Assembly (NCBI GenBank): GCA_913048385.1 | Contig: CAJWVZ010000005.1 | Span: 54,268 to 118,267, forward strand | Length of the DNA: 64,000 bases | DNA from: an uncultured Gammaproteobacteria bacterium | GTDB lineage: Bacteria > Pseudomonadota > Gammaproteobacteria > Pseudomonadales > Pseudohongiellaceae | Direction of reading: 5' to 3' | Shown: piece by piece, positions 23,586 through 24,128 of the stretch | Position numbering within the stretch: position 1 is the first letter of the stretch | How the letters are laid out: each line of letters begins with the position of its first letter | Position numbers and translations under genes: made by a program | The notes under the pieces: model-generated | Databases searched by the model: none | Told to the model about the DNA's origin: nothing | Seen by the model: the letters and a program-made list of their open reading frames with translations, nothing else

Positions 23586-24128
23586 CTAAATTTTTGGGAA
23601 CCCCAGTTCCTCCATAGTTCGCGTCAGGTCTCTTCCTGCAGTAGCAGGTTTAGTTTCCTTATCAATTTTCAAGATGGTGCCGTCAACGTCTATGTAGTAC
23701 GTCCAACGACGGGCAAAACCGGCTGACATCAACACGCCGTAATCCTTCGTCATCCTCTTCTCTGGGTCGGAGAGAATCGGAAATCCGGCCTGATGTTCCT
23801 CAGCGAACGCTGTATTTTCTTCCAACGTGTCAACACTCGCCATAAAATAGGCAACGTCAAAACTTTGAATTTCTCTAGCACTGTCACGCAGCGCTTTGCA
23901 TTGCATTGTTCAACCGCCAGTAAAAGCTTTCGGAAAGAAAGCAATCACTACCGGCCTTACTCCGGTAAATTCTGATAAAGAATAAGTTTTCCCATCTGAG
24001 CTCTGTAGGCTAAAATCAGGCGCTTTATCTCCTTCTTCTATGCCCATGGCGTACCCTCCTGCGAAGAAAAGTAATACAGCAAAGATCGACGACAATACAG
24101 GCACGTTCTTTTTATAAAAGTGGCGCAT
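23586..24128 (-). CDS. exported peroxiredoxin (Bcp/PrxQ-like) with an in-frame UGA at the peroxidatic position; predicted selenocysteine-containing, 180 aa
   Basis: Track ORFs 23910..24128 and 23586..23906 are in the same frame, separated only by TGA (23910-23912) plus ACA. Read-through gives ...[13 protein letters not shown][U]TMQCKALRD..., recreating PxxxTxxC with TGA at the Cys. GGAG RBS before ATG 24128. Hairpin lies 14 nt after the TGA. Confidence 0.75.
23877..23895 (-). promoter_or_regulatory. candidate bacterial SECIS hairpin
   Basis: mRNA reads UGA-ACAAUGCAAUGCAA-AGCGCUG-CGUGA-CAGUGCU. It has a 7-bp stem (one G-U) and a 5-nt apical loop with G at position 2. The loop starts 21 nt after the UGA. 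Confidence 0.45.

Follow-up and report, generated by a model that had tools for sequence, protein, structure and literature searches.

The 64,000-nucleotide stretch analysed here (the window) comes from an uncultured gammaproteobacterium of the family Pseudohongiellaceae (contig CAJWVZ010000005.1, positions 54,268 to 118,267), and its minus strand carries a peroxiredoxin gene (24128..23586) that reads as a single frame of 180 codons followed by a TAG stop and interrupted by one internal TGA at 23912..23910. An open reading frame (ORF) finder divides the gene into a 72-aa ORF (23910..24128) and a 106-aa ORF (23586..23906), which share one frame on the minus strand and are separated by just the TGA and an ACA codon; the start assigned to the 106-aa ORF is the ATG that follows TGA-ACA. 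An earlier note on this DNA, made from the letters alone, had described the two in-frame ORFs, a GGAG ribosome-binding site, a clean terminator and a hairpin 14 nt after the TGA, and re-reading of the sequence confirmed each of these features. Direct folding of the terminator (23568..23541) gave -21.7 kcal/mol and z=-5.9, with 0/200 shuffled sequences folding equally well; it was not picked up by a consensus terminator scan, probably because its A-run pairs with the U-run. The coordinates of the gene, its elements and its downstream neighbour are collected in Table 1.

Table 1. Features at the peroxiredoxin locus (window coordinates; downstream nucleotides are counted with the T of the TGA as position 1)
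Feature	Coordinates	Strand	Details
Complete coding sequence, predicted selenoperoxiredoxin	23586..24128	-	180 codons + TAG; one in-frame UGA, predicted to be read as Sec73
UGA codon for predicted Sec73, peroxidatic position	23910..23912	-	TGA in 90/90 related loci; Cys (TGC/TGT) in 38 unique homologues
Active-site motif P66-K-A-F-T70-G-G-U73 (PxxxTxxU)	23910..23933	-	TGA at the last position, the peroxidatic site of PxxxTxxC
Cys77, candidate resolving Cys (UxxxC, +4)	23898..23900	-	Invariant in alignments A1 and A3
Arg141, conserved peroxiredoxin active-site Arg (RWTYY)	23706..23708	-	Invariant; aligns with the Arg of LRTTF in the window Bcp
Predicted Sec-type (secretory) signal peptide, residues 1-27	24048..24128	-	MRHFYKKNVPVLSSIFAVLLFFAGGYA, then MGIEEGDKAPDF
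Shine-Dalgarno GGAG	24136..24139	-	7 nt 5' of the ATG; seen directly in the sequence
Hairpin resembling a bacterial selenocysteine insertion sequence	23877..23895	-	Stem +18..+24 with +30..+36; apical loop CGUGA, +25..+29
Intrinsic terminator	23541..23568	-	A-run, GGACC-CGUA-GGUCC stem-loop, then U8
DUF3014 gene	22550..23413	-	Pfam DUF3014, E=5e-35; N-terminal hydrophobic segment; directly 3' of the peroxiredoxin gene

Peroxiredoxin domain, active site and predicted export signal

The Pfam domain AhpC-TSA (PF00578) covers residues 33-153 of the read-through protein and extends across the TGA junction (E=2.9e-31, 108.4 bits against a gathering cutoff of 26). Reading through the TGA restores the peroxiredoxin motif PxxxTxxC with the stop codon on the catalytic residue (P66-x3-T70-x2-[TGA]73), and a candidate resolving cysteine, C77, follows four residues later, both as the earlier note had stated. 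P66, T70, [U]73 and R141 do not vary within the alignments; all four match positions of the canonical Bcp encoded elsewhere in the window (60461..60940), with U replacing C. The use of this Bcp as the aligned reference proved sound: the two proteins align without gaps around the active site (FYPKAMTPGCTVQACGIRD versus FFPKAFTGG[U]TMQCKALRD), with the peroxidatic cysteine of Bcp opposite the TGA. In this ungapped alignment Cys77 faces an alanine of the window Bcp, one residue before the Bcp resolving cysteine, placing the second cysteine at +4 in the read-through protein and at +5 in Bcp.

The nearest solved structures in a PDB sequence search were Sulfolobus solfataricus Bcp1 and Mycobacterium tuberculosis AhpE (E=2e-16), both with the catalytic position at the TGA column. 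Foldseek matched the thioredoxin-type peroxiredoxin fold with a template modelling (TM) score of about 0.8, normalised by target length, using a low-confidence model of a Cys orthologue that was built from a 14-sequence alignment, has a predicted local distance difference test (pLDDT) score below 50 in the active-site loop, and was used for fold class only. The protein scored 83 bits against NCBIfam NF006960, the canonical Bcp equivalog (cutoff 140), and 45.6 bits against NF040737, the model for PrxU (cutoff 270). Because its score falls under the NF006960 cutoff, the window protein is not a canonical Bcp; judged by its sequence, it is a distinct Bcp-like subfamily inside the known family of selenocysteine (Sec) peroxiredoxins, and the housekeeping Bcp is the product of 60461..60940.

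Signal-peptide features were found in 75/75 unique N-termini of the TGA-bearing (Sec-form) sequences: each has one or more K/R residues in the n-region, a 12-residue Kyte-Doolittle maximum of 2.0 or higher, and a small-x-small pattern ahead of the conserved mature start; in the window protein the predicted cleavage falls between GYA and MGIEEGDKAPDF. The N-terminal sequence varies among these proteins while the pattern of n-, h- and c-regions stays, which is the behaviour expected of signal peptides. The conserved, predicted signal peptide indicates that the protein is exported, in agreement with the export proposed in the earlier note.

Conservation of the UGA codon and of a downstream hairpin

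A scan of one genome per species gave 257 relatives, and the best 80 of these 257 were analysed; all are Pseudohongiellaceae/OM182-type gammaproteobacterial metagenome-assembled genomes, at 69-93% identity. TGA is present at the peroxidatic codon in all 90 related loci (the 80 species-level genomes, metagenome copies and the window), and in every one of them it is flanked by FTGG before and T[MI]QCKALRDS after. Such recurrence goes far beyond chance. Three more divergent loci also have TGA at this codon. The earlier note had proposed checking whether orthologues carry Cys or an in-frame TGA at this column, and these were the two states found: TGA in the 90 close and 3 divergent loci, Cys in the 38 unique forms, and no unrelated residue or random stop among them. 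Relatives recovered by protein search were of two kinds, one full-length, about 180 aa long and 55-81% identical, the other exactly 106 aa long and 82-99% identical. All of the 106-aa relatives begin at MQCK, so the same stop position recurs; the distant full-length relatives have Cys at the column and the six closest have Trp. Across the 83 unique coding sequences, amino acids are conserved and synonymous changes are abundant in each half of the gene; this purifying selection indicates that both halves are translated.

The Cys-form control loci were taken from metagenomes. In addition, the Cys-form gene of the cultured Pseudohongiella spirulinae (CP013189.1) and that of a second genome share the neighbourhood of the window gene, with glyoxalase and aldehyde dehydrogenase genes upstream, DUF3014 directly downstream and a UPF0176 rhodanese gene next. 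The Sec and Cys forms are therefore positional orthologues that differ at the catalytic residue.

The invariant core of the hairpin downstream of the TGA (23878..23894) corresponds to nt +19..+35 (GCGCUG-CGUGA-CAGUGC) and is identical in all unique Sec-form sequences. Codons +6..+10 (GCG CTG CGT GAC AGT, encoding A-L-R-D-S, with degeneracies of 4, 6, 6, 2 and 6) are each represented by a single codon in 83/83 unique sequences, and they form the sole run without synonymous variation in the gene. The same five codons vary in the 38 unique Cys forms, in which CGC is the usual Arg codon and AGC the usual Ser codon, whereas the Sec forms all have CGT and AGT. Folding of nt +13..+45 gave one hairpin in 51/51 unique Sec forms, at -7.9 to -11.7 kcal/mol, and assorted folds with a mean of -4.4 kcal/mol in 37 Cys forms, the Sec forms being more stable (Mann-Whitney p=6e-13). 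Three divergent TGA-form loci (L113, L114 and L115; Ga0315326_10274906, Ga0115002_10022114 and Ga0308018_10036383, respectively), whose proteins are 53-58% identical to that of P. spirulinae, retain the CUG-CGUGA-CAG core, and the base of their stem is re-formed in a shifted register in which an A or U is bulged out; this register shift is the only compensatory-type change seen in the hairpin. Support for the hairpin comes from the synonymous-site invariance and from these three divergent sequences.

The earlier note had proposed a check for a bacterial selenocysteine insertion sequence (bSECIS) downstream of the TGA, and the hairpin agrees with such an element, both in its geometry and in a synonymous constraint that is seen in the TGA forms only. 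The bSECIS model, as set out in a 2026 review (PMC13188914), has an apical loop of 3-9 nt, an upper stem of 4-16 bp, a G in the first two loop positions that is usually followed by G or U, a UGA-loop spacing of 16-37 nt, and a minimum free energy of -7.5 kcal/mol or lower. Compared by hand with these published ranges, the hairpin falls inside them, with a loop of 5 nt beginning C-G-U, a stem of 6-7 bp, a spacing of 21 nt, and the folding energies given above. As in the fdhF and fdnG SECIS elements of E. coli and the bSECIS consensus, it is situated just after the UGA inside the coding sequence and has G-U in a small apical loop at a spacing of 16-37 nt; the divergent Sec-peroxiredoxin members also resemble them in having a bulged U or A in the stem. 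It differs from the E. coli elements in having an unrelated primary sequence, as is usual for bSECIS elements, and a stem of just 6-7 bp.

A possible lower helix was also observed, pairing nt +9..+14 with +57..+62 (GCAAUG/CGUUGC; 23851..23904, minus strand), which is 97.6% pairable and shows 11 G-C to G-U changes and no double compensations. It could explain why Gln at codon +3 is always CAA (83/83) and Val at codon +19 is GTT in 77/83; as there are no double compensations, the lower helix is inseparable from coding constraint.

Reading of the UGA codon

It is very likely, from the sequence comparisons, that the gene encodes a genuine Sec-peroxiredoxin, a secreted (periplasmic) protein of the Bcp/PrxQ type with selenocysteine as its peroxidatic residue. 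The earlier note had favoured a Sec-peroxiredoxin over a pseudogene, and this view is upheld by the TGA in 90/90 loci, the constraint on the hairpin and the purifying selection on both gene halves. From established bacterial Sec decoding and peroxiredoxin chemistry we infer Sec insertion, a role for Cys77, a periplasmic location and the identity of the reductant, as follows. The UGA at codon 73 would be recoded during translation, with the hairpin that starts 14-15 nt downstream acting as a bacterial SECIS and recruiting SelB with GTP and Sec-tRNA(Sec), leading to Sec being inserted instead of termination. The N-terminal signal peptide would direct export, and the Sec73 selenolate, placed by Pro66, Thr70 and Arg141, would attack the peroxide and be converted to a selenenic acid. 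Cys77 (UxxxC) would resolve the selenenic acid to an intramolecular selenenylsulfide, which would be reduced by an envelope thioredoxin-like reductant, probably a DsbD/ScsB-TlpA-type relay.

Several observations weigh against this reading. The search for the Sec machinery covered the 64-kb window and the fetched flanks; probes for SelA, SelB and SelD of E. coli gave no tblastn match in the window and 89 loci, and no tRNA-Sec was seen, ARAGORN returning no tRNA in the window or in loci L010-L069. No Rfam model matched the hairpin: at gathering thresholds Rfam returned nothing within the window, and at a permissive threshold 23780..23960 gave only a chance match to a small nucleolar RNA (E=9). 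RNAalifold and pair counting found no classical covariation in the stem within the main clade, because the stem is invariant there, and the post-UGA region of the window, folded alone, was no better than shuffled sequence (z=0.3), a measure that is uninformative for so small a hairpin. In addition, the signal peptide was assigned by simple rules and not by a trained predictor, and the structure model has low confidence (pLDDT 64).

The TGA could be a nonsense mutation in a dead gene, or a sequencing or assembly miscall of TGC or TGT, as one base change takes either codon to TGA and annotation pipelines handle the gene as two fragments. This reading is effectively refuted at the sequence level, its probability being negligible, by the TGA at the same codon in 90/90 independent assemblies from 80 species, by the selection on both halves and by the conserved RNA element beside the TGA; nor are the loci copies of a single contaminant, since they comprise 83 unique coding sequences. 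Next to no probability is given to UGA being a sense codon genome-wide (genetic code 4 or 25, read as Trp or Gly), a reading with which the W at this position in the ENA and JGI gene calls P0001-P0006 would agree. Of the 55 long ORFs in the window, 13 terminate at TGA, the canonical bcp and the adjacent ATPase gene of the ABC transporter being two of them; the genetic code is thus standard. A screen for conserved TGA-split genes with redox motifs recovered the peroxiredoxin gene alone and no second such gene in the window and 80 flanks, and Trp or Gly as the peroxidatic residue would inactivate a peroxiredoxin.

Translation could also stop at the UGA and restart at the AUG 3 nt on (UGA-ACA-AUG), yielding 72-aa and 106-aa polypeptides that function separately or assembled, and the in-frame ATG at codon +2 in 88/92 Sec-form loci is a geometry compatible with termination-reinitiation. 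Such a split gene is nevertheless highly improbable. Neither fragment is plausible alone, as the earlier note had argued, and the catalytic residue would lie in neither. In four loci the Met at +2 is replaced by Ile, the next in-frame start is 23 codons downstream and the residues between are still conserved, which speaks against a separately translated second half; in the Cys-form orthologues, each a single polypeptide, Ile stands at +2, and the synonymous constraint maps to the SECIS-like hairpin and not to a ribosome-binding site. A small probability attaches to read-through that is stimulated by the hairpin without Sec, either by a near-cognate tRNA (Trp or Cys) or as a selenium-independent pause/termination switch. 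In other systems, RNA structure downstream of a stop codon can promote its read-through, and no Sec machinery was observed in the window and fetched flanks. However, the site is the catalytic Cys/Sec position, at which the Cys-form orthologues use plain TGC/TGT, the hairpin fits the bSECIS model including the G-U in the apical loop and the spacing, and the protein belongs to an accepted selenoprotein family in which a Sec-peroxiredoxin has been shown experimentally, in Eubacterium acidaminophilum. There is also a slim chance that the host genomes are without canonical SelA, SelB and tRNA-Sec, and that the UGA-hairpin module drives another form of recoding, such as Cys or Trp insertion or an output-tuning termination/read-through switch.

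Known relatives, annotation and gene neighbourhood

The Sec-peroxiredoxin reading places the window protein in a family already familiar from the ocean. Peroxiredoxin (pfam00578/COG1225, TxxU), a member of the selenoproteomes of the Sargasso Sea (Zhang, Fomenko and Gladyshev 2005, PMC1088965) and of the Global Ocean Sampling (GOS) data (Zhang and Gladyshev 2008, PMC2398784), ranks with the most abundant selenoprotein families of the sea, the GOS data having 253 Sec-peroxiredoxin sequences from 34 samples. The GOS supplementary sequence file (PMC2398784) holds the same orthologue group (e.g. JCVI_READ_1711844 and JCVI_READ_1496933): the string 'GGUTMQC' is found in it 12 times, and one listed read matches the window protein, whose motif is T-G-G-U, over a 23-residue stretch. 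The statement in the earlier note that Sec-for-Cys peroxiredoxin-like proteins appear in computational surveys was therefore correct, as the GOS supplement lists this very subfamily. The Sargasso/GOS family and the window protein have the same Pfam domain, TxxU motif and marine source, with no essential difference between them, and the subfamily is already known, as a kind and as this orthologue group, from the ocean-metagenome surveys of 2005-2008. The assignment to Pseudohongiellaceae/OM182, the signal peptide and the UxxxC (+4) spacing were not found in the survey passages drawn on and, with a possible relic SECIS in one Cys form, are minor additions to them. The signal peptide, if true, would make the subfamily a cell-envelope selenoperoxidase; the known picture of bacterial selenoproteins is unchanged by the signal peptide, the +4 Cys or the relic hairpin.

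The PxxxTxxU motif is described for Sec-peroxiredoxins in PMC13188914, which also cites the experimental demonstration of a Sec-peroxiredoxin, PrxU of E. acidaminophilum (Sohling et al. 2001). PrxU resembles the window protein in having Sec at the peroxidatic position of this motif; it belongs to another peroxiredoxin subfamily, as the NF040737 score indicates, and its host is an anaerobic Gram-positive, whereas the window protein, with its predicted signal peptide, belongs to an aerobic marine lineage of Gammaproteobacteria. The Bcp/PrxQ proteins (E. coli BCP, S. solfataricus Bcp1 (PDB 3drn), M. tuberculosis AhpE (PDB 1xvw) and the window Bcp) share the fold and the Pro, Thr, peroxidatic residue and Arg; in contrast to this set, the window protein has a predicted Sec in place of the peroxidatic Cys and a predicted N-terminal signal peptide. 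A precedent for export is PprX of Caulobacter crescentus (Cho et al. 2012, PMC3322552), a periplasmic BCP/PrxQ peroxiredoxin that carries a signal sequence and has its resolving Cys at a non-canonical position. Its reduction, either through TlpA, supplied with electrons by ScsB, or by the thioredoxin-like domain of DsbD, offers a model for how such an enzyme could be recycled in the envelope. The likeness, drawn from the published description of PprX, lies in the BCP/PrxQ type, the signal sequence and the non-canonical resolving Cys; PprX uses Cys where the window protein is predicted to have Sec. In the vicinity of the window peroxiredoxin gene, no gene for ScsB, DsbD or TlpA was identified.

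The main value of the analysis is a correction of annotation, as practically all public copies have the gene either split or mistranslated. The earlier note had expected standard annotation to miss or truncate it, and public gene calls do give the 72-aa and 106-aa fragments, a 'hypothetical protein', or a W that results from calling with code 4 or 25. The ENA/JGI calls P0001-P0006 run to the full 180 aa and show Trp where Sec is predicted (L001:1417-1959, L002:488-1030, L003:1224-1766). For P0001 and P0005, the two that were checked against DNA, this 'Trp' is TGA; the spurious Trp stems from translation of the short contigs under a code that treats TGA as sense. Such entries could mislead surveys of Sec and Cys forms. 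The misannotation affects at least 80 Pseudohongiellaceae/OM182 species, and functional inventories consequently lack an antioxidant enzyme that is apparently universal in a common marine lineage.

The DUF3014 gene adjoins the peroxiredoxin gene in metagenome copies of the window, in P. spirulinae and in a further Cys-form locus (L092), that is, beside both Sec and Cys forms, and a functional link between the two members of this conserved gene pair is possible. Directly upstream of the peroxiredoxin gene in the window is a three-gene ABC transporter (24454..28295, minus strand) comprising an SBP_bac_1 family substrate-binding protein, a permease and an ATPase; a weakly TPR-like gene takes its place in P. 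spirulinae, L001 and L003, and the upstream context is thus not conserved, unlike the downstream DUF3014. Beyond the peroxiredoxin-DUF3014 pair are a tandem-rhodanese sulfurtransferase-like gene (21654..22526, minus strand), a UPF0176-type rhodanese gene (20537..21544, minus strand) and a DUF411 gene (19607..20122, plus strand); a link of this region (19607..22526) to selenium metabolism was not established. A DUF255/DsbH ORF elsewhere in the window (61872..63923, minus strand) was considered as a second selenoprotein, as it is apparently truncated at its N-terminus, and was rejected: it runs off the window edge (64000) and its CHWC motif is intact.

One Cys form (TGC), at L108:1501-1959 (JGI contig Ga0209702_10000118), keeps GCGCTGCGTGACAGTG, which is 16/17 nt of the Sec-form hairpin; in its sister Cys form, L092, the hairpin is lost. 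The hairpin in L108 is possibly a relic SECIS left behind when Sec was recently converted to Cys, a change of which it would be a direct trace.

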